Source: an uncultured Candidatus Marinamargulisbacteria bacterium
GTDB lineage: Bacteria; Margulisbacteria; Riflemargulisbacteria; GWF2-35-9; DYQY01
NCBI GenBank assembly: GCA_964643725.1
Contig: CAZXTL010000004.1
Span: 27,874-91,873 of the forward strand
Direction: 5' to 3'
Length of the DNA stretch: 64,000 bases
The position numbers were made by a program, and so were the translations under genes. Numbering within the stretch: position 1 is the stretch's first letter; every line of letters begins with the position of its first letter. The notes under the pieces are model-generated. The model made no database searches, had not been told where the DNA came from, and saw only the letters and a list, made by a program, of their open reading frames with translations. This document shows, one piece after another, positions 4,612 to 39,238 of the stretch.

Positions 4612-7600
4612 ATGAAGAGTACATACTCTTATTTGCATAATATCCAAGGGTTAAGATACAAAGTGGCTTCTTTGGTAGAGACAGATATCCCCTCTTCCGT
4701 AGGAACACCAGACGTGTCTGGTTGTGCTAACACGCCTTTGGCACTTCCTTCTCCAGCAATAAATACAACAGATGCTAATCTAGCAATAGATGCTCCTATT
4801 GAACCAGAAAGACCTGATAATATAAATATAGAGCATGCAAATAATGCACAAAGAGCTATGAATGATAGTACTGTTCCTCCAAAAACTCCACCTGCTGTTA
4901 ACCTAAGCAATTCTTGGTCAAATTATCGAAGAAGTTTTGAAGTTATAAAACAGTTTATGATAAATAACTGGCAGTTAGTTGCTATGTTAGGAACTAATAT
5001 AGGACTTGAAGCTACATATAACTTATCTGATTATGGTCCTGCAGTCGGTGGCATAATAAGAGGGATAGATGCTACTTTATTCATGCATTGGGTTAGCATG
5101 AAGAGCGCTCAGGCATATGTTAAAGGTAAAATTATTGGTTTTAATGGCGGGTTAAGAAAAGAACTAGATAGAGTTTATAAAACATTTATTAATGGAAAAG
5201 ACCTTTCTTCTATTGAACAATTCCAAGTAGCTAATAATATGAAACTGTATTTTACGGTTTCATCTTTAGTTGCAGGAATCGGTGAGTTGAGAAGTAGAAT
5301 TCAACTAGAAGGTAACGTAAGTAATCTTACGGGTGTAAACAATCCTGCTGTTTTAAGTGACCTTATTAACTATTTAGATTCAGGTATTATTGAATTGACT
5401 GCTTTATTGCAAGACGCTAAAGCTCCTCAAGAGGTCAAAAATGCAGTTGCTAGACTTGCAGCATTTACGCCTGAAGAGGGAGACAATGCTTTGGTTGAGG
5501 CTTGGTTGAAAAACAGTGTTTTGCCAGCATTTAGCAATTCAGAAGACCAAAATGTCCAGATAATATCAACGTTTTTCCAGAAGAGGATGAATGATCCTAA
5601 TATTCAAATAGAGGAGAGTTTCCTTATTGCTTTTGATAAATTTTTGCAGGAAGATAATTCCCAGTTTCAATCAAAAATTAAATCCTTACAGAGAAGGCTT
5701 CTTCTAACACAGGCAACTCAGGTGATTATGGCAGTTAGCTTGCTTGGCATTTTAGGATTTAACACATTCACTCAAGATGTTAGCGCTATTCAAAAGATAA
5801 TGACTGTTTATTGCTTTTTAGCTTCTATTTTGTATTATGCGGTAGATGGTGCGACTAATTTTTATAATCAACTAAGAACATTTTTTGATAAGAATTTGCC
5901 AGATTTTGGCGTTCCATTAACTAATAAATTAGATAACCCAATGATGAGTGCGATTCGCTATCCCTTTGCTCATAACAACATGGAGTGGGTGTTTCAAGAC
6001 CTTATTTCCAACGTGCTGTTGGATGGAAATTTCGTAGGTACGGAGAATATATTTAGTAGCGCTAGTATGTTAAGAAGACAGTCTTATGGAATAGTAACTA
6101 TACTTAATGCAGCAAAAGCTAGATATGAGTTATTAAAACCACAGTTTAGTGATTTGCTTAAAGGGTTTAGTGAGAATGCCAAAAGATTGCTGCCTCTTTT
6201 ATTAAGTGTAGACAAATATCACCCAGTTGCTACCGAGATAAGCATTCAGAGAGCAGTTAATAATGTTTTCTCAGGGTATAAAGATAATAAGACAGGTTAT
6301 TTGACAACATTTGAAACATTATTATTAGGTTTCCCACAACAGGATGCCGGTAGACATAGAACAGAGCAGGGCAGATTAATTGTAGAAGCTGTTCTTTTTA
6401 GAATGAAGGGTGAACTTAATAAGGCAGGTTTATCAGATGACGCTATACGTATTTTGGTAGAGAGATTTAATATTGGTGATTTCAATCATTATGATTTTAA
6501 GAATATGATGGAAGATGCTTTAGTAAATGACTTGGGGATGGATAGTACAACTGAGAATTTTAAAACTATAGTAAAGACAATAATTGATAACAAAACCCAA
6601 TATCAAAATGAAGCTGTTATAGCTTATACCAGTAAAGAGGGAATCCCAGCACAGCAGGCAGCAGCTATTATGCATCAAATGCAGGTTGTATTTCAACAAG
6701 AATCAATGTTTGAAAGAATAGCAGAGATAGCTAATCTTTTAAGAAAAGGGATTACTATTGATGAAGAAGGTAACGCAGTTAATCAGGACGCTTTGAAAGA
6801 AGAGTTGCAAGGATTGTTAGCTAAAGCTTTCTTGGGAACAGATGTAGTTAATCAAAACATAGTAGAAATGGTCAATATTTTAGTAGCCAGTGGGGAACAA
6901 ATCACTCAAACATCTTATGATGCATTTACTTTAAAAGATCCAATGTCAGATGTTTCTATGGATGTTAATAAGTTTTCTCATCTAGTGAATGTCCGAAGAA
7001 GAATTGGAATTATGGGACTTAACGAAAAGAAGCTTAGAGGAGAGAACTTCGAAGCTAATCAGGTATTAACTTTATTTTACTCAATTAAAAATATGGTGGC
7101 CGATAAAAACAGTGGTAATCAGGCTGGATATAGAACTAAACTTGCAAATTTATATTTTATTTTAACCGGAGAACAATTAACAGCTACAACTGATGAAGAT
7201 ATTCAGAAAGCTTTTGAAAAAGTTGTGCAATCTTATAAGAGTTTATTAACAGATACACTTACAGATTTTAATGGTAAGTCTACTACAAAAAATATTACCA
7301 AATATAATGATTTAAGTTCAGAACAGAAGAATAATATTGATAATTTTCTAAGTGATAATCAATTTTCAAGAAAGTATACATATAATAAACAAACGGGAGC
7401 ACTTACTGTTATTGGACAAATGACTAAGGCTGAGATTAATATATTAAAAACAATTTTTCCAACAAAGATAGACATAAAAACTTTATATGATATGGAAAAT
7501 GATTCTCTTGGTAAAAACGAAGAGCATTTTAATATAATTAAAGACTTTGATGTAACATCTGCTCAAGCAGAGCAACATATGTTTGATATTGTCACTAGAC

Positions 7601-29618: not shown

Positions 29619-29705
29619 GAAATTATTATACTGTTTATTCGTTGATTTGTTTATATGTTTATTTGTTTAAGAAAGAGTATTTTTAGTTAATATGATTATA
29701 TTTAC

Positions 29706-29790
29706 TGAACCCTCTCCGTCGCGTAAGCAATGGAGAGGGTGGCGATATCGAAATGTTTTACAAGCTCTCGCCTGATTACGCCGGGTGAGG
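29706..29790 (+). repeat. Structured repeat element, copy A (solo): hairpin CCCTCTCC-(14-nt loop)-GGAGAGGG, then GGTGGCGATATCG...TTACGCCGGG
   Basis: Lies between the secF 3' end and the uppP 5' end. The stem sequence differs from copy B, yet pairing is preserved by compensatory changes (CTCTCC/GGAGAG versus CTTCTT/AAGAAG). Confidence 0.7.
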
Positions 29791-29791
29791 T

Positions 29792-30706
29792 TTACTGATT
29801 CAATTTTTTAAATCTATACAATAGTGGGCTTGCTATAAAGATAGATGAATATGCTCCAGCACTGATACCAATTATTAGCGCAAGCGAAAAATCTTTTATA
29901 GATGCTCCACCCCAGAAGTAAATAGCAATTAATGTTAATAGTGTTGTGAACGATGTATAGATGGATCTGGTCATCGTTTGGGCAAGACTATTGTTAATAA
30001 TATCAAAGATTTCTTCTTTGCTTTCTTTTAGGTTTTCTCTCACTCTGTCAAAGATAACAATAGTATCATTGATGGAATACCCCATTACGGTCAGAAAGGC
30101 AGCTACATAGGAAGTATTTACTTCTATGTGAAGTAAAGCTGTCATTCCAATCAAAATCATTCCATCATGAACTAAGGCAAGTATAGCTGCAATAGCTGCC
30201 CAGAACTCGAAACGGAAGGTAATGTATATTAGTAAAAGTAGCATAGCAATACCAGTGATAGCGAATGCTTGTTTTTGAAGTTCGTTACCAACAGTTGGGC
30301 CAATGAAGTCAGTAGATAATATAGTTGCTCCTTCTATTTCAGAAGTTATTTTTTTAGATAATTCTTCAATAGAAAGATTTGTTTTTTGAAATTTCAAGGA
30401 GAATAGATATTTATCAATTGTAGTAAGCTGTGTGTTTTCAACTCCTGCTTTTTCCATTGTTCCTCTGATTAAACTAGTAAGTTCACTTCTAGTTTTTTCT
30501 GACAAAACACCAGTAGAGTTAAATTCTTTAGTTGCTTTATCAATACCTACTGTATATGAAATTCCCCCAGTAAAATCTATTCCAAGATTGAAGGGGGTTC
30601 CAGTTGATAGGAAGTTGTTGAACATAGAATATATACCAATGCTGATAATAATAGTAGATAGTCCGAACCAATATTTAGTCTTGTCTAAAAAATATATTTT
30701 TCCCAT
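29792..30706 (-). CDS. secF: Protein translocase subunit SecF
   Basis: LGIDFTGG motif, a 304-aa membrane protein, immediately downstream of secD on the same strand. Confidence 0.9.
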   Translation of the reverse strand: MGKIYFLDKTKYWFGLSTIIISIGIYSMFNNFLSTGTPFNLGIDFTGGISYTVGIDKATKEFNSTGVLSEKTRSELTSLIRGTMEKAGVENTQLTTIDKYLFSLKFQKTNLSIEELSKKITSEIEGATILSTDFIGPTVGNELQKQAFAITGIAMLLLLIYITFRFEFWAAIAAILALVHDGMILIGMTALLHIEVNTSYVAAFLTVMGYSINDTIVIFDRVRENLKESKEEIFDIINNSLAQTMTRSIYTSFTTLLTLIAIYFWGGASIKDFSLALIIGISAGAYSSIFIASPLLYRFKKLNQ

Positions 30707-32051: not shown

Positions 32052-35508
<3,457 letters not shown>

Positions 35509-35518
<10 letters not shown>

Positions 35519-35545
35519 TGGTTCAATTGTTCATTAGTTCAATCG
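35509..35545. repeat. Left arm of an imperfect inverted repeat (GTTCATTGGTTCAATTGTTCATTAGTTCAATCGTT) spanning the GH57 start codon and the four-helix-bundle gene stop
   Basis: A 13-nt perfect complement (GTTCATTGGTTCA / TGAACCAATGAAC), plus further imperfect GTTCA(A)T-type repeats, to the arm at 36021-36058. Confidence 0.75.
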
Positions 35546-35922
35546 TTAATCTTATTCAGTTGTTTAAGATATTTGATAAAACTATTCACCTTTCTTGATA
35601 ATATATTGATTTGTTCTTCTATTACTATACTATCCTCTTTTTTAATATATCCAAGATTATTAGCTATTATTATTTGTGTTTCTATTTCAGAAAGAGAGCC
35701 AAGAGCAATATATAAATGTTTTAAATACTCCTTATCTGATTGCTTTGCGGCACCTTCAGCAATATTTGATGGTACAGACACACTTGCTCTTTGTATTTGA
35801 GAGCAAAGTGCAAATTTTTCAGACTCAGGAAATTGTTTAGTGATTTTGTAAATAGCTGTAACAAATTCTATAGATTCTTTCCAGATATCTAAATCTTTAT
35901 GTGTTCCCATTTTTTTCTCCAT
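35539..35922 (-). CDS. Four-helix-bundle protein (the family formerly called '23S rRNA intervening sequence protein'). The likely true start is the MGTHKDL Met, 12 nt inside the ORF.
   Basis: Strong family signature read by eye: ...QFPESEKFALCSQIQRASVSVPSNIAEGAAKQSDKEYLKHLYIALGSLSEIETQIIIA..LGYI. Confidence 0.8.
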   Translation of the reverse strand: MEKKMGTHKDLDIWKESIEFVTAIYKITKQFPESEKFALCSQIQRASVSVPSNIAEGAAKQSDKEYLKHLYIALGSLSEIETQIIIANNLGYIKKEDSIVIEEQINILSRKVNSFIKYLKQLNKIND

Positions 35923-36020: not shown

Positions 36021-36058
36021 CCCAATGAACCATTGAACGAGTGAACCAATGAACCGTT
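36021..36058. repeat. Right arm of the inverted repeat (CCCAATGAACCATTGAACGAGTGAACCAATGAACCGTT), abutting the hom stop codon
   Basis: Reverse complement of the left arm. Together the two arms bracket the four-helix-bundle gene and its upstream region (35539-36020). Confidence 0.75.
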
Positions 36059-37307
36059 ATATCCCTACTCTTATAATACTAGCCACGTCTTTGATGCAAG
36101 ACAATGCTTTTATCTTTTCAATGGCTTTGTTTTTAATTCCTTCTTTGATGGAATGTGTAACAATCACTAGTTCTGCATCTTCGTCAGCACCTTTTTGGAT
36201 AGCTTCTTTGATACTGATATTAAGTTTAGCAAAGATACCACTAATTTCTGCAAGTACACCAGGTTTGTCTTCAACGAGTAACCTTATGTAGTACTTGGAG
36301 ACTATTTCTTCTTTAGGTAGTATATTCACTTTTAGCTTTTTCTCTGTAACGTAAGCTGTGCCGTTGATGATATTTAGTATATCTGCCCAAACAGAACCTG
36401 CGGTTGGAATACTTCCAGCTCCACGTCCATAGAACATGCTTTCTCCTGTAGCATCTCCATCTACGTAGATAGCGTTGAATACATCGTTGACCGAAGCAAG
36501 TGGGTGACTGTTTTTTAGAATAACAGGATGTACTCTTAGTTCTAGTCCTTTATCAGTGTTTCTTGCAATGGCTAATAGTTTAATGCTGGCATCAAGGTTT
36601 TTTGCATAATTAATGTCTTTAGCAGATATTTTAGTAATGCCTTCCATTAAAATCTGTTCAATATTTATATCAGCATGAAAAGCTATAGAAGCTAGGATAG
36701 AAAGTTTGTACCTGCTGTCCATACCTTCAACATCTGATGAAGGATCAGCCTCGGCATAACCTAGTTTTTGTGCTTCTTTTAATACAACTGCATAATCAGC
36801 GCCTTCTTTTTGCATCTTGGTAAGGATAAAGTTAGTTGTTCCGTTAAGAATACCAACCATTTCCTTAAAGTTATTTGGTGATAATGAATCTTTTAGGTTA
36901 TTAATGATAGGAATTGCACCACCAACCGAAGCTTCATAAAGTAAGGATACGTTGTTATCTTCAGCTAGCTTAAGTAGATCTTTGCCGTATTTTGCAAGAA
37001 CAAGTTTATTAGCAGTAACAACGTGTTTTTTTGCTTTTAATGCAGATTCAATAATGGTTCTAGCAGGCTCATCTCCACCAATAAGTTCAATTATTATGTT
37101 TATTTCTGGGTCTGCAATAAGTTCTTTGAAGCTGTTAGTTTTTTGAAAAGATGATAGGTCGTAAGGGCATTTGCTAAAGTCTAAATCGCAAATAGTTTTT
37201 AGTTTAAAAGGGGTTTTCGCATGTGAGCTTAATTTGGCAAAATTGCTTTGGTATAAGTGGATAACGCCTGAGCCGATTGTTCCTGTGCCGATTAATCCAA
37301 TGTTCAT
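36057..37307 (-). CDS. hom: Homoserine dehydrogenase
   Basis: N-terminal NAD(P)-binding GLIGTGTIGSGV motif, a central catalytic region, and a C-terminal ACT-like regulatory domain. 416 aa. Confidence 0.9.
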   Translation of the reverse strand: MNIGLIGTGTIGSGVIHLYQSNFAKLSSHAKTPFKLKTICDLDFSKCPYDLSSFQKTNSFKELIADPEINIIIELIGGDEPARTIIESALKAKKHVVTANKLVLAKYGKDLLKLAEDNNVSLLYEASVGGAIPIINNLKDSLSPNNFKEMVGILNGTTNFILTKMQKEGADYAVVLKEAQKLGYAEADPSSDVEGMDSRYKLSILASIAFHADINIEQILMEGITKISAKDINYAKNLDASIKLLAIARNTDKGLELRVHPVILKNSHPLASVNDVFNAIYVDGDATGESMFYGRGAGSIPTAGSVWADILNIINGTAYVTEKKLKVNILPKEEIVSKYYIRLLVEDKPGVLAEISGIFAKLNISIKEAIQKGADEDAELVIVTHSIKEGIKNKAIEKIKALSCIKDVASIIRVGI

Positions 37308-37365: not shown

Positions 37366-38598
37366 TTAGCTGGTATGTTTTTTTAAGTCACTTATGTCTG
37401 TTGTTCTTAATTCTGTAAAATTACTAATAAAAACAGCTAGAGGAATCCTAAGAATTCCATCACGTGTGTCATGTGGATTTATAAGAACTATTTCGTCAGT
37501 TTCTTCTTGATATGATTGAACAAAGTAAGCGTGTTTTGGGTAAATTCGAGTATTTGGTGGTTTAATAGTACTACCAGCAACCATTAATTGATTACTTATA
37601 AAAGCTGAATAGTCTTTTATTCTAGACCTCAGCTTGTCAATGTCTTTAGAGTATATGTTTTGTGATTTTTTACCTAATAATATTTCTATCGCACTTTTCA
37701 TTGAACCAAGAGTTGTTAGTTCCATTGTGTTTGGTTCATAAGAGTCAGTATCTTCGTCATCAAAGGACCCCAAGTCAGACCTTCGTGCTTCTATTTCTAC
37801 TATGGCTTTCCCAAAAGTTCTTTCCATAATTAGGTCGCCGATTCTGCCTTTGTTAAGCTTATTGTTGATGCTAAGTAGGTCTTCAATATTTATTGTTGTA
37901 GTAATTTTCCCCATATTGCCATTTTTATCAGAATGTCTTGGGTCGTAGTAAGTTACTGACCAAGTAAATGGCGAGATTTCCTCAATCATTTTGGGAATTA
38001 CTTTTTGTGCAATGTATGTTCTTAATATTCCTTCGTAGACTGCTAAAAAATAACAATTTCCAACAATTCCTTGTTTTATAGCACCTTCTTGTAATCCCCT
38101 AGGAAATAGATGATGGATATTATGAAATGAAGGGTTCCATTCCATTAATTTGGACATTGATACATCTTTATATTTATTGTCATTATCCCAAGCAACGGTG
38201 TATTTGTTGTTTTCTCTGGCTTTTATGGTCCCTTCATGAAAACTTTGTGTTGTTTTACTGAAAACTCTAATTTTACTTTGTCCAATTCTAAAAGGGTTAT
38301 GGTATTCAAGTTCTAGTGAATGAAACCATTTTTTCCCTTTGGGAGTATCAATAAGATGCATTCCGTCTTCTGTTTTGAGTATTTCTTTAGGAATATACTT
38401 GCCATTATCCTTAATAAATACCGTATCTCCAGCATAGAACGTTCTTTCAGATATTTTTCTTGATATAGCAATAACTTTCTTCTTCATACTTACTATTAAG
38501 CCCAGAAAACAAGACAAATAAACATTTCGGAAATCCATCCGCTCAAATGTACTTAAGGCTTCATAAGGTAGAAACTTGTGAGCACCTTCCTTTATCAA
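37366..38598 (-). CDS. Calpain-like (clan CA, C2-type) cysteine peptidase homologue. The start is uncertain: the track start is TTG, and Met21 or Met38 are alternatives.
   Basis: QGIVGNCYFLAV matches the calpain active-site Cys block QGxLGDCWLLAA (Cys182, codon 38053-38055). KHAYFV matches GHAYSV (His356). VLINPHD matches RLRNPWG (Asn374). Cys-His-Asn spacing of 174/18 aa compares with ~157/24 aa in calpain. Confidence 0.6.
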   Translation of the reverse strand: MIKEGAHKFLPYEALSTFERMDFRNVYLSCFLGLIVSMKKKVIAISRKISERTFYAGDTVFIKDNGKYIPKEILKTEDGMHLIDTPKGKKWFHSLELEYHNPFRIGQSKIRVFSKTTQSFHEGTIKARENNKYTVAWDNDNKYKDVSMSKLMEWNPSFHNIHHLFPRGLQEGAIKQGIVGNCYFLAVYEGILRTYIAQKVIPKMIEEISPFTWSVTYYDPRHSDKNGNMGKITTTINIEDLLSINNKLNKGRIGDLIMERTFGKAIVEIEARRSDLGSFDDEDTDSYEPNTMELTTLGSMKSAIEILLGKKSQNIYSKDIDKLRSRIKDYSAFISNQLMVAGSTIKPPNTRIYPKHAYFVQSYQEETDEIVLINPHDTRDGILRIPLAVFISNFTELRTTDISDLKKHTS

Positions 38599-38621
38599 GG
38601 AAGGTTTAGGTGGGCGAATGG
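38585..38621 (+). repeat. Partial, diverged copy C of the same element: hairpin CCTTCC-TTTATCAA-GGAAGG, then TTTAGGTGGGCGAATGG. It lies upstream of the DUF559 gene.
   Basis: The loop TTTATCAA is the reverse complement of the copy-B loop region TTGATAAA. GGTGGGCGA matches GGTGGCGA. Together with copy B it brackets DUF559 at 38669..39049. Confidence 0.5.
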
Positions 38622-38668
38622 CATTATAGTAACTTTAAATACGTTGCGTTGTTTAGTAAAATGGGACT

Positions 38669-39049
38669 ATGCGAGATCAGATTCCGTTTGTCCCTTATGA
38701 AAAAAGATTGTTGGTTTTTTCGCGGAGGAATAGGATGAATCCTACGCTTGGTGAAGCGAGGATGTGGGATATTTTGAAGAATGATTGTTTTAAAGAATAT
38801 AGATTTTTAAGGCAGAAACCATTATATAAGTTTATTGCTGATTTTTACTGTAGTGCCTATTTATTAGTCATCGAGGTTGACGGAGATTACCATGATTCTG
38901 TCAAAGAATACGACCAACTAAGGGAAGATATCCTTAAAGAAAACTTTGGAATAGAGATTATCCGTTTCACCAATGAAGAAATCATAGAATGCCCCGACTT
39001 CGTCATTAATAAGCTACTAGAAAGATTACACTCACTAAACCCTTCTTGA
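38669..39049 (+). CDS. DUF559 endonuclease-domain protein (Vsr-like fold)
   Basis: Matches the DUF559 consensus: ...ARMWDILKN..FKEYRFLRQKPLYKFIADFYCSAYLLVIEVDGDYH....YD..R...L...GIEIIRFTNEEI. Confidence 0.8.
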   Translation: MRDQIPFVPYEKRLLVFSRRNRMNPTLGEARMWDILKNDCFKEYRFLRQKPLYKFIADFYCSAYLLVIEVDGDYHDSVKEYDQLREDILKENFGIEIIRFTNEEIIECPDFVINKLLERLHSLNPS

Positions 39050-39121
39050 TAAAGAAGGGTGGCGACACCGTAGTGCTTCAGGATTTGTCGATACCTTACG
39101 CCGGGAAGATTGGTGTTTTTT
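39036..39121 (+). repeat. ~85-nt structured repeat element, copy B: hairpin CCCTTCTT-GATA-AAGAAGGG overlapping the DUF559 stop, then GGTGGCGACACCG...TTACGCCGGG..., ending in a T6 run. It may also act as the DUF559 terminator.
   Basis: An 8-bp perfect stem at 39040-39059. A 51-nt gap-free alignment to copy A at 29738-29788. The T-run is at 39116-39121. Confidence 0.7.
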
Positions 39122-39163
39122 CAAGAAAGTATGTTTAAGTTCGTATTTTTTGGGCAGAATATA

Positions 39164-39226
39164 AATAGTGAATAGTGAATAGTGAATAGTGAATAGTGAA
39201 TAGTGAATAGTGAATAGTGAATAGCG
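39164..39226. repeat. Perfect heptanucleotide tandem repeat (AATAGTG) x8 plus one AATAGCG unit, ending 12 nt before the ORF7 start codon
   Basis: Read directly from the sequence: aatagtg x8 at 39164-39219, then aatagcg at 39220-39226, followed by aaAGGTGAagtaATG. Confidence 0.95.
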
Positions 39227-39238
39227 AAAGGTGAAGTA

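Follow-up and report, generated by a model that had tools for sequence, protein, structure and literature searches.

The locus analyzed in this work raises the question of why a small gene coding for a DUF559 (Vsr-like PD-(D/E)XK) endonuclease, that is, a protein with a very common domain of unknown function, should lie between structured repeats, one relative of which is found in another spacer of the same DNA. The DNA in question (hereafter the window) is a stretch of 64,000 nucleotides (nt) with a low GC content (33%), taken from contig CAZXTL010000004.1 (positions 27,874 to 91,873, forward strand) of an uncultured Candidatus Marinamargulisbacteria bacterium (GCA_964643725.1). A sequence-only reading of the window had described an element placed at 39036-39121, across the DUF559 stop codon, and again at 29706-29790, between secF and uppP. 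Our analysis revealed that this ~85-base element is real, that it is non-coding and that it folds into two conserved stems; it belongs to a new small family of structured repeats in Margulisbacteria, of which no published description was found. As to its nature, we favour, with roughly even confidence, a structured repeat family tied to the DUF559 nuclease cassette and resembling either repetitive extragenic palindromes (REPs) with their REP-associated tyrosine transposases (RAYTs) or MITEs (miniature inverted-repeat transposable elements).

The element, its family and the DUF559 cassette

The DUF559 gene (38669..39049, plus strand) codes for 126 amino acids (aa). Its open reading frame (ORF) matches the PF04480 profile above the gathering score (E 1e-25; 90.2 bits, the cut-off being 20.6), the nearest solved structure is 3hrl (E 2e-13), and all the family-invariant residues are present (D58, E69, D71, H75, R85 and R99; D..E.D..H core). 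The closest protein relatives come from metagenome-assembled genomes of Candidatus Riflemargulisbacteria and Margulisbacteria (84% and 79% identity, respectively). For comparison with the window, orthologous loci were taken from four related genomes, in all of which the gene is syntenic; against its orthologues it exhibits a dN/dS of 0.10-0.14 at a dS of 0.5-1.2, and it is intact and under purifying selection. A promoter-like site, TTTAAA-17-TAAAAT, is predicted by consensus scan inside the cassette just 5' of the ATG (38634..38662, plus strand), in a stretch that is almost invariant across the orthologues.

The two copies of the sequence-only reading exist where it had placed them. The first (type A; 39038..39121, plus strand) is the right inverted repeat of the cassette and scores 88 bits with a covariance model built on 12 type-A and type-B copies. 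Its hairpin spans 39039-39060, its second helix pairs GGCG (39061-39064) with CGCC (39099-39102), and its tail, GGGAAGATTGG, is followed by a T-run; the TGA of the PF04480 ORF falls in the hairpin loop, in agreement with the overlap that had been claimed, and copy A sits in the DUF559 3' untranslated region (UTR). The second (type B; 29708..29790, plus strand) is a solo element lying directly behind the secF stop codon, antisense to secF and uppP, with a covariance-model score of 76.8 bits and a fold z-score of -4.2; its hairpin has a 14-nt loop, its second helix joins GGCG (29741-29744) to CGCC (29779-29782), and its tail is GGGTGAGG. The blocks GGGTGGCGA and TTACGCCGGG occur exactly in both copies with the identical spacing of 30 nt and nowhere else in the window; from base composition, the chance of such a second copy is estimated at ~3e-8. 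The ungapped alignment of the 3' 51 nt was confirmed (33/51 identical), as was the finding that the two hairpins differ in sequence and are perfectly paired in each case (CCCTTCTT/AAGAAGGG in copy A, CCCTCTCC/GGAGAGGG in copy B). The selection on structure deduced from this covariation is supported as well, and the second helix also covaries.

The geometry of the bracket had to be corrected. A diverged, direct partial copy had been placed at 38585-38621; on the plus strand, this hairpin plus GGTGGGCGA reaches just 15.4 bits (E 0.07), whereas the minus strand of 38522..38606 gives a full-length match of 37 bits (E 1e-7), the type-L element. The presumed partial copy is the inner hairpin of this type-L unit, the left inverted repeat of the cassette, and therefore DUF559 is flanked by inverted, not direct, repeats: the idea of a bracket stood, its direct orientation did not. 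The type-L hairpin (38584-38605, CCTTCCTT/AAGGAAGG, loop GATA on the minus strand) is accompanied by a second helix in which 38579-38583 pairs with 38541-38545 (GCTCA/TGAGC) and by the tail GGATGGATT; single-sequence minimum-free-energy folding of this copy yields both helices. Full-length type-L matches are also present in loci L002, L004, L005, L008 and L056, with blocks conserved in four species. The whole cassette (38522-39121, ~600 bp) thus holds DUF559 as its single gene between two units whose hairpins point inward and whose GC-rich 3' blocks and tails point outward. The hairpin loops of its two ends, TATC and GATA, are reverse complements, the inner arms (27 nt) are 85% complementary, and covariance-model matches lie on opposite strands either side of DUF559 in all five cassette-carrying loci.

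Further copies were searched for by scanning 185,579 species genomes and a metagenome collection for the exact two-block pattern, in a stricter form for the metagenomes. These scans gave five more relevant loci, namely L027, L047 and the metagenome contigs L055-L057. Two of the 46 matches in the genome collection were relevant (L027, a solo type-A copy by the pattern scan, and the Candidatus Termititenax locus L047, type B); the remaining 44 were rejected as chance matches in GC-rich genomes, without the hairpin. Pattern matches in eleven Amycolatopsis genomes (L012, L016, L021, L026, L033, L034, L037, L039, L045, L046 and L050) share a conserved stretch of ~100 nt with a T-run end (..TTACGCCGGGTGGCTTTTTTTGCCATGC) and without an upstream hairpin, which looks unrelated to the element and is plainly conserved in that genus. 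The element found no match in a plasmid collection (blastn) or in a pattern scan of viral contigs, and a tRNA/tmRNA scan gave nothing that would point to a tRNA-fragment or attachment-site origin. In the literature on DUF559 with repeats, or on repeats of Margulisbacteria, no earlier description of the association was found.

Altogether, 21 copies were collected from 9 loci in at least five Margulisbacteria genomes, and they fall into three subtypes (A, B and L). All share one plan, in which a hairpin of 9 bp, whose 5' arm is rich in pyrimidines and whose 3' arm is rich in purines, stacks directly on a helix of 4-5 bp closing a variable, fast-evolving loop of ~34 nt, and a purine-rich tail follows (GGGAAGATT, GGGTGAGG or GGATGGATT). 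Type A can be written as CCCTTCTT-GATA-AAGAAGGG plus TGGCGACA.. ..TTACGCCGGGAAGATT, and type B as CCCTCTCY-loop-RGAGAGGG plus TGGCGATA.. ..TTACGCCGGGTGAGG, where the loop measures 3-28 nt. The 5' arm of the hairpin is CCCTTCTT in type A, CCCTCTCY in type B and CCTTCCTT in type L; the second helix is GGCG/CGCC in types A and B, GCTC/GAGC in type L and GACG/CGTC in the degenerate copy L004-A1, with a G-T intermediate in L057-2. In the 21-copy alignment, which was fitted by the covariance model itself and whose changes boil down to few evolutionary events, 98.2% of the pair cells are paired, vs 82.7% in column shuffles (none of 500 reaches the observed value) and 44-63% in slid controls, and compensatory or double changes occur at 8 of the 13 pairs. 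Single-sequence folding recovers both helices for types A and L, and loop insertions of up to 28 nt, with a nested stem, are tolerated. Both strands of the element fold equally well, so that folding gives no choice of strand, and G-U wobble asymmetry offered too few cases to point to the functional one. No structure shared among the copies was found in the central ~34 nt, the candidate stems CAGCA/TGCTG and GAGAA/TTCTC not being common to them.

A fourth variant, with a 10-bp second helix, occurs in L055 and L005. More two-stem units with the same plan and other sequences were seen at L055 6881-6945, L005 201-250 and L005 974-1020, and the combination of CCTTCCCTTTTTAAGGGAAGG, a T and an 8-10-bp second stem is present in both L055 and L005.

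In each of the four related orthologous loci an element directly follows the DUF559 stop codon. In L005 and in L056 type A is duplicated in tandem, both copies including the last ~35 nt of DUF559, and L004 has two degenerate tandem copies in which the same ~35 nt were duplicated along. Across orthologous type-A copies the first 27 nt (the hairpin plus the helix-2 block) are 100% identical and the 3' block 88-100%; since these blocks are nearly invariant while the adjacent gene has diverged to a dS of 0.5-1.2, constraint acts on the gene as well as on the end blocks, and both have long been at this site.

Coding remnant, terminator or RNA module

Different explanations might be proposed for such a unit, and the simplest is homology between gene fragments: copy B, like the nucleotides that follow the DUF559 stop, would be left over from a longer DUF559 3' end, reading ...GGD(I/T)VV..YAG. 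Some observations fit this idea. The GGD..YAG frame is open, with a TGA at its end, in all five type-B copies; the 20 nt located 5' of copy B match the DUF559 3' end at 16 positions; and the tandem type-A copies and L027 hold ~35 nt of genuine DUF559 3' coding sequence. However, the same frame is interrupted by internal stops in 4/7 type-A copies and by stops in most type-L copies, and the hairpin loops (4, 3-4, 9, 14 and 28 nt) differ by lengths that are not multiples of 3 and break it. The blocks GGTGGCGA and TACGCCGGG show no third-position variation over a dS of ~1 (0.5-1.2 for the adjacent genes), such a C-terminus is missing from all of 24 DUF559 homologues, copy B has on its left a duplicated secF stop region, which largely explains the upstream likeness, and a copy on the minus strand whose helix changes compensate each other cannot derive from coding sequence. 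We therefore reject the remnant of a second DUF559 3' end, which appears extremely improbable. The sequence-only reading had also envisaged that no copies might exist beyond those of the window and that these might be parts of a DUF559 pseudogene; copies are present in related genomes and the coding remnant fails.

A family of 3' structured terminators had been suggested as well, which would mean that the units are intrinsic terminators, acting bidirectionally at the cassette ends. The position of the element at a gene 3' end agrees with this, and in copy A of the window a terminator scan finds ACGCCGG-GAAGA-TTGGTGT with TTTTTC behind it. Nevertheless, the conserved hairpin is followed by GGCG and not by a T-run, and the weak alternative stem found by the scan exists only in copy A of the window and of L007, being absent from the type-A copies of L005 and L056 and from all type-B and type-L copies; a terminator function is thus very improbable.

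Three other candidates were tried and rejected. A leader peptide in type B lacks an in-frame start codon after the hairpin; a promoter inside the element could be read from the TTGAYA of the loop, which lacks an acceptable -10 at 16-18 nt, and no promoter emerged from the scan; a type III toxin-antitoxin system was considered for the tandem type-A copies, whose repeats lie downstream of the gene and whose DUF559 protein has a DNA-nuclease fold.

The main rival, which is a live one and which we consider unlikely, takes the units for cis-acting RNA modules unconnected with mobility or with the nuclease, either stem-loops of untranslated regions that stabilise, insulate or process transcripts, or portable ribosome-binding modules. 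The compensatory changes in both helices would be expected of an RNA, copy A lies within a 3' UTR, and the purine-rich tails resemble Shine-Dalgarno sequences. Type-B copies occupy four independent sites in total (those of L005 and L047 share one), and at three of the four the unit ends 23-32 nt before the ATG in the sense orientation. At loci of the candidate phyla radiation (CPR), described below, an equivalent G-tail stands 6-10 nt before the ATG of DUF559 and of dnaG, and effects on mRNA stability are known for REP elements (PMC3184786).

On the other hand, the secF-uppP transcript runs antisense to copy B of the window and no gene stands downstream of this copy; where downstream genes exist they are mutually unrelated. 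The equal folding of both strands also speaks against an RNA, as does the search of Rfam 15, in which no gathering-score match was found in the window and none up to E 10 on the elements, bar a chance snoRNA at E 7.5. Moreover, the type-L unit is probably untranscribed. Indeed, according to predictions from consensus alone, the cassette would stand between divergent promoters of a calpain-like gene and of a gene coding for 1147 aa; the latter promoter would reside in a conserved segment recognised by alignment (GTATGTTTAAG..TTGGGCAGAATAT; 39129..39162, plus strand) at the right of the cassette, which is also found in Termititenax, where the cassette is missing, and beside the deleted cassette of L027. 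The type-L unit lies upstream of both predicted promoters, and this would favour a role at the level of DNA. Lastly, RNA modules leave the inverted bracket, the flanking duplication and the deleted cassette (see below) without explanation.

Possible mobility of the units and possible role of the nuclease

The presence and absence of the element at given sites differ between relatives. Termititenax (L047) is devoid of the whole cassette, and the flanks ATAAACATT and AGTATGTTTAAG are nearly adjacent there. A type-B unit upstream of the large gene is present in L005 and L047 and absent from the window, L004 and L007. At this same position the window carries a perfect heptamer array, (AATAGTG) x 9.3 (39164-39228), just 5' of the 1147-aa gene, the relatives having only degenerate AATAGTR repeats; in Termititenax another nested hairpin, CCCCCTCCTTTGCCTGTTGCAAAGG ... 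AGGGGG (L047 1820-1890, minus strand), has the promoter-like segment on one side and the type-B unit on the other.

In the window, copy B stands between the two halves of an exact (7/7) duplication of TTTACTG (29701..29707 and 29791..29797, plus strand), which abut the element and are the longest word shared by its flanks, the right one overlapping the stop codon of secF (minus strand). The reconstructed empty site aligns with L002 and L005, and both TTTACTG copies carry a lineage-specific synonymous C, which suggests that the insertion is fairly recent. A shortened unit is seen in L005 at the same secF-downstream site, suggesting either repeated insertion there or an old element decaying differently in each lineage. 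Flanking duplications were also recognised at L057B (AAAACAAAA, 9 bp, p 0.0007) and around the cassette of L008 (TTTCAAGA, 8 bp). In L027, a second locus of genome GCA_037141875.1, an L-A pair stands just 128 nt apart without DUF559, as an internally deleted cassette.

Based on the inverted bracket, the dispersed solo copies, their presence or absence, the 7-bp duplication at copy B and the second locus with its deleted cassette, we favour one of the possibilities listed by the sequence-only reading, a REP/MITE-like element with a link to DUF559; the direct partial copy of that reading was geometrically wrong, and mobilisation by DUF559 is something that we only infer. Several observations weigh against such a family. 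The copy at L027 includes ~45 nt of right-flank sequence, which makes segmental duplication equally likely as transposition; the cassette has kept one syntenic site over a dS > 1 and so has not been recently mobile; flanking duplications were looked for and not found at L005B, L047B and L055B; and copies are few (three in 64 kb, with two relevant genome loci and three metagenome contigs by the exact-pattern scans). The conserved blocks differ from one end of the cassette to the other (GGTGGCGA..ACGCCGGG vs GGTGCTCA..TGAGCGGATGG), which is awkward for one sequence-specific protein recognising both. The sense orientation and spacing of most type-B sites fit an RNA role, and two other kinds of small cassette in these genomes (a 23S-rRNA-intervening-sequence protein gene and a GIY-YIG gene, see the last section) are bracketed too, although one of them does not code for a nuclease, so that brackets need no cognate nuclease.

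It is possible that the units act as folded DNA, cruciform or single-stranded, and that DUF559 binds or nicks them in this form; if so, their spread, their tandem duplication and their maintenance would be accounted for. We infer this binding or nicking only tentatively and place it on the doubtful side, since the unlike blocks of the two ends, the small number of copies, the long stability of the cassette and the bracket around a non-nuclease gene all speak against it. The outward-facing units may also give expression signals to the flanking genes.

The inverted repeats might instead be the recombination sites of an invertible DNA switch beside giant surface-protein genes. In favour of this are the inverted repeats themselves, which enclose a promoter-bearing segment beside very large genes, and the report that DUF559 genes are enriched among predicted programmed-inversion targets (PMC9881135). 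Yet the two repeats are consistently of different subtypes in all species, which implies that no recombination has homogenised the cassette ends; the orientation is identical in 5/5 loci, no recombinase gene was found among the scanned ORFs adjoining the cassette, and the promoters of the neighbours are predicted outside the segment. An invertible switch thus seems scarcely credible.

Returning to the repeat family tied to the nuclease, its closest model is the REP/RAYT geometry, in which structured repeats in inverted orientation stand on either side of a RAYT gene and relatives of them are dispersed (PMC3184786). Similarly, DUF559 is single-copy, vertically inherited and flanked by inverted structured repeats (covariance matches in all orthologues), relatives of these repeats are dispersed in intergenic regions, and the hairpins are kept through compensatory change. 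The differences concern, first, the enzyme, DUF559 being a Vsr-like PD-(D/E)XK protein and the REP partner an HUH/Y1 transposase; the DUF559 product gave no match to the Y1 transposase family, and with an enzyme other than a Y1 transposase the cassette is not a member of the REP/RAYT family. Second, the Margulisbacteria unit is ~85 nt long with two helices, whereas a REP is a palindrome of 20-40 nt; third, its copy number appears low in comparison with the tens to hundreds of REPs per genome; fourth, GTAG is found in many type-A and type-B loops, outside the REP position.

MITEs such as Correia, ERIC, RUP and Nezha offer a second comparison, since the element is likewise small, non-coding, intergenic, foldable and often beside gene starts, with presence/absence between relatives and a clean target duplication at copy B, and since the full ~600-bp cassette and the L027 pair have terminal inverted repeats and a deleted derivative exists. 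In contrast to MITEs, the ends of the solo 83-nt unit (AACCCTCTCC and ..GGGTGAGG) do not form an inverted pair and the flanking duplications are inconsistent (7 bp at copy B, 9 bp at L057B, 8 bp at L008 and none at three sites). No transposase family, and hence no DDE partner, was found among the scanned ORFs of the window (its four giant ORFs were left out) or among the genes called in the related loci. The cassette differs from IS200/IS605 elements, whose sub-terminal hairpins lie on one and the same strand, in its inverted ends and in having neither TnpA nor TnpB.

The clade of nucleases that DUF559 shares with the Vsr/EDxHD homing endonucleases, such as I-Bth0305I (PMC3424549), suggests a third comparison. 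Like a homing gene, DUF559 is small and selfish-looking, and at a fixed site with conserved genes on both sides it is either present or lacking (the window vs L047). It differs in being old and selected at its site and in having a structured inverted-repeat bracket; to our knowledge, homing genes are not normally bracketed in this way. Finally, the 23S rRNA intervening sequences associated with PF05635 also combine a small ORF, an inverted-repeat bracket and a variable presence. A long stem of that kind between the cassette ends was considered and rejected: the ends differ at 3/4 helix-2 pairs, so that only the 27-nt hairpin parts are complementary, and each end folds on itself.

DUF559 genes and hairpins beyond Margulisbacteria

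Whether copies accompany other DUF559 genes, as the sequence-only reading had proposed to check, can be answered affirmatively for similar C-rich/G-rich hairpin brackets, which are found at six of the seven cellular loci of close homologues (two Paceibacterota, Shapirobacteria, the contig L074, Leptospiraceae with the upstream hairpin only, and the window itself). Hairpins are found in these loci 14-64 nt 5' of the start, and most of the loci have one covering the stop codon as well; the Shapirobacteria homologue has a perfect 20-nt inverted hairpin pair. Hairpins on both sides were found at none of 20 distant DUF559 homologues on viral contigs. With the covariance model, mini-units (the hairpin plus a GGGTGGG/GGATGGG tail, without the second helix) were detected on opposite strands around CPR DUF559 genes. 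In the Paceibacterota loci (L058, L066-L068), DUF559 stands between rpoC and dnaG in two genomes and its proteins are only ~50% identical; there, a hairpin plus a GGGGG tract forms the apparent ribosome-binding region of both DUF559 and dnaG.

A comparable arrangement surrounds ycjD of Escherichia coli K-12 (L097; NC_000913.3 1351000-1352300). A 17-bp hairpin covers the ribosome-binding site and the GTG start of this gene, its stop codon falls in the loop of a C-rich/G-rich hairpin (CCCTCTC..GCGAGGG), and a degenerate tandem duplicate of its last ~60 nt lies 3' of it, in the ycjD-fabI spacer. The duplicate is followed by CCCTCT-GGGG-AGAGGG-TTA-GGGTGAGGGG, within a dispersed stretch of 76 nt that occurs in all of 5426 E. 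coli genomes, at a median of 17 places per genome, and that also fits a G-quadruplex-type pattern. This dispersed repeat is presumably BoxC. BoxC has been described as a repeat of 56 bp with 33 copies (PMC5172473). The end of the ORF in a hairpin loop (..SPSP* in ycjD compared with ..NPS* in Margulisbacteria) is common to both, and the adjoining CCCTCT..AGAGGG plus GGGTGAGGGG resembles the type-B hairpin and its GGGTGAGG tail, as a likeness of short motifs only; the E. coli repeat differs in having no helix-2 domain, and the covariance model gave no significant match at the ycjD locus.

Apart from REP, most families of small repeats in bacteria, BoxC included, are not known to have a cognate enzyme. 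It can be speculated that small DUF559 nucleases are the cognate enzymes of repeats with a "hairpin plus G-rich tail" in different phyla, which would make a second REP/RAYT-like system based on a PD-(D/E)XK nuclease. The A, B and L units of Margulisbacteria, the CPR mini-units and possibly the BoxC beside ycjD may be members of it, and the ~600-bp cassette with its inverted ends may represent an autonomous or domesticated core; on the whole we regard this wider idea as rather improbable. Its interest lies in the conserved physical coupling of small DUF559 genes to structured repeats, which is seen in Margulisbacteria and CPR bacteria and, as it seems, at ycjD of E. coli too. If YcjD binds or nicks BoxC or the hairpins that flank its gene, this would give DUF559 a function and explain where a class of repeats comes from; otherwise the elements remain a new and well-supported structured motif with two covarying helices, and they would also illustrate the way in which small hairpin-bracketed cassettes (DUF559, GIY-YIG and 23S-rRNA-intervening-sequence protein) come to occupy the spacers of otherwise syntenic genomes.

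Neighbouring genes and other small cassettes

Other small genes of the window and its relatives are framed by inverted repeats or hairpins too. A gene for a 23S-rRNA-intervening-sequence protein (127 aa; PF05635, E 2e-38) lies at 35539-35922 on the minus strand, 3 kb from the cassette and between the GH57 and homoserine dehydrogenase genes. Its flanks (35500-35540 and 36030-36065) are the inverted repeats GGTTCATTGG... and ...CCAATGAACC, and this gene with its repeats is absent from the equivalent intergenic region of L002 and L005, that is, it is variably present. Conversely, L005 has between tgt and the GH57 gene a GIY-YIG gene (93 aa; 4676-5018) bracketed by the hairpins TTCCCGCGAAGGCGGGAA and TTCCCGCCTGCGCGGGAA, which is absent in the window.

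The calpain-like gene that adjoins the cassette (37366-38484, minus strand) owes its name to a weak match, below the threshold, with calpain-type cysteine peptidases (PF00648, E 2e-4); the 410-aa ORF listed for it over-extends through the type-L element, and a conserved start, MKKKVIA.., lies near 38484. The ORF of 1147 aa gave no Pfam match. Four giant ORFs, of 2867, 2255, 2949 and 6973 aa, occupy 4576-28823 and 42843-63764, and orthologues of the 6973-aa and 1147-aa ORFs are located 3' of the DUF559 cassette in L005 and L007.

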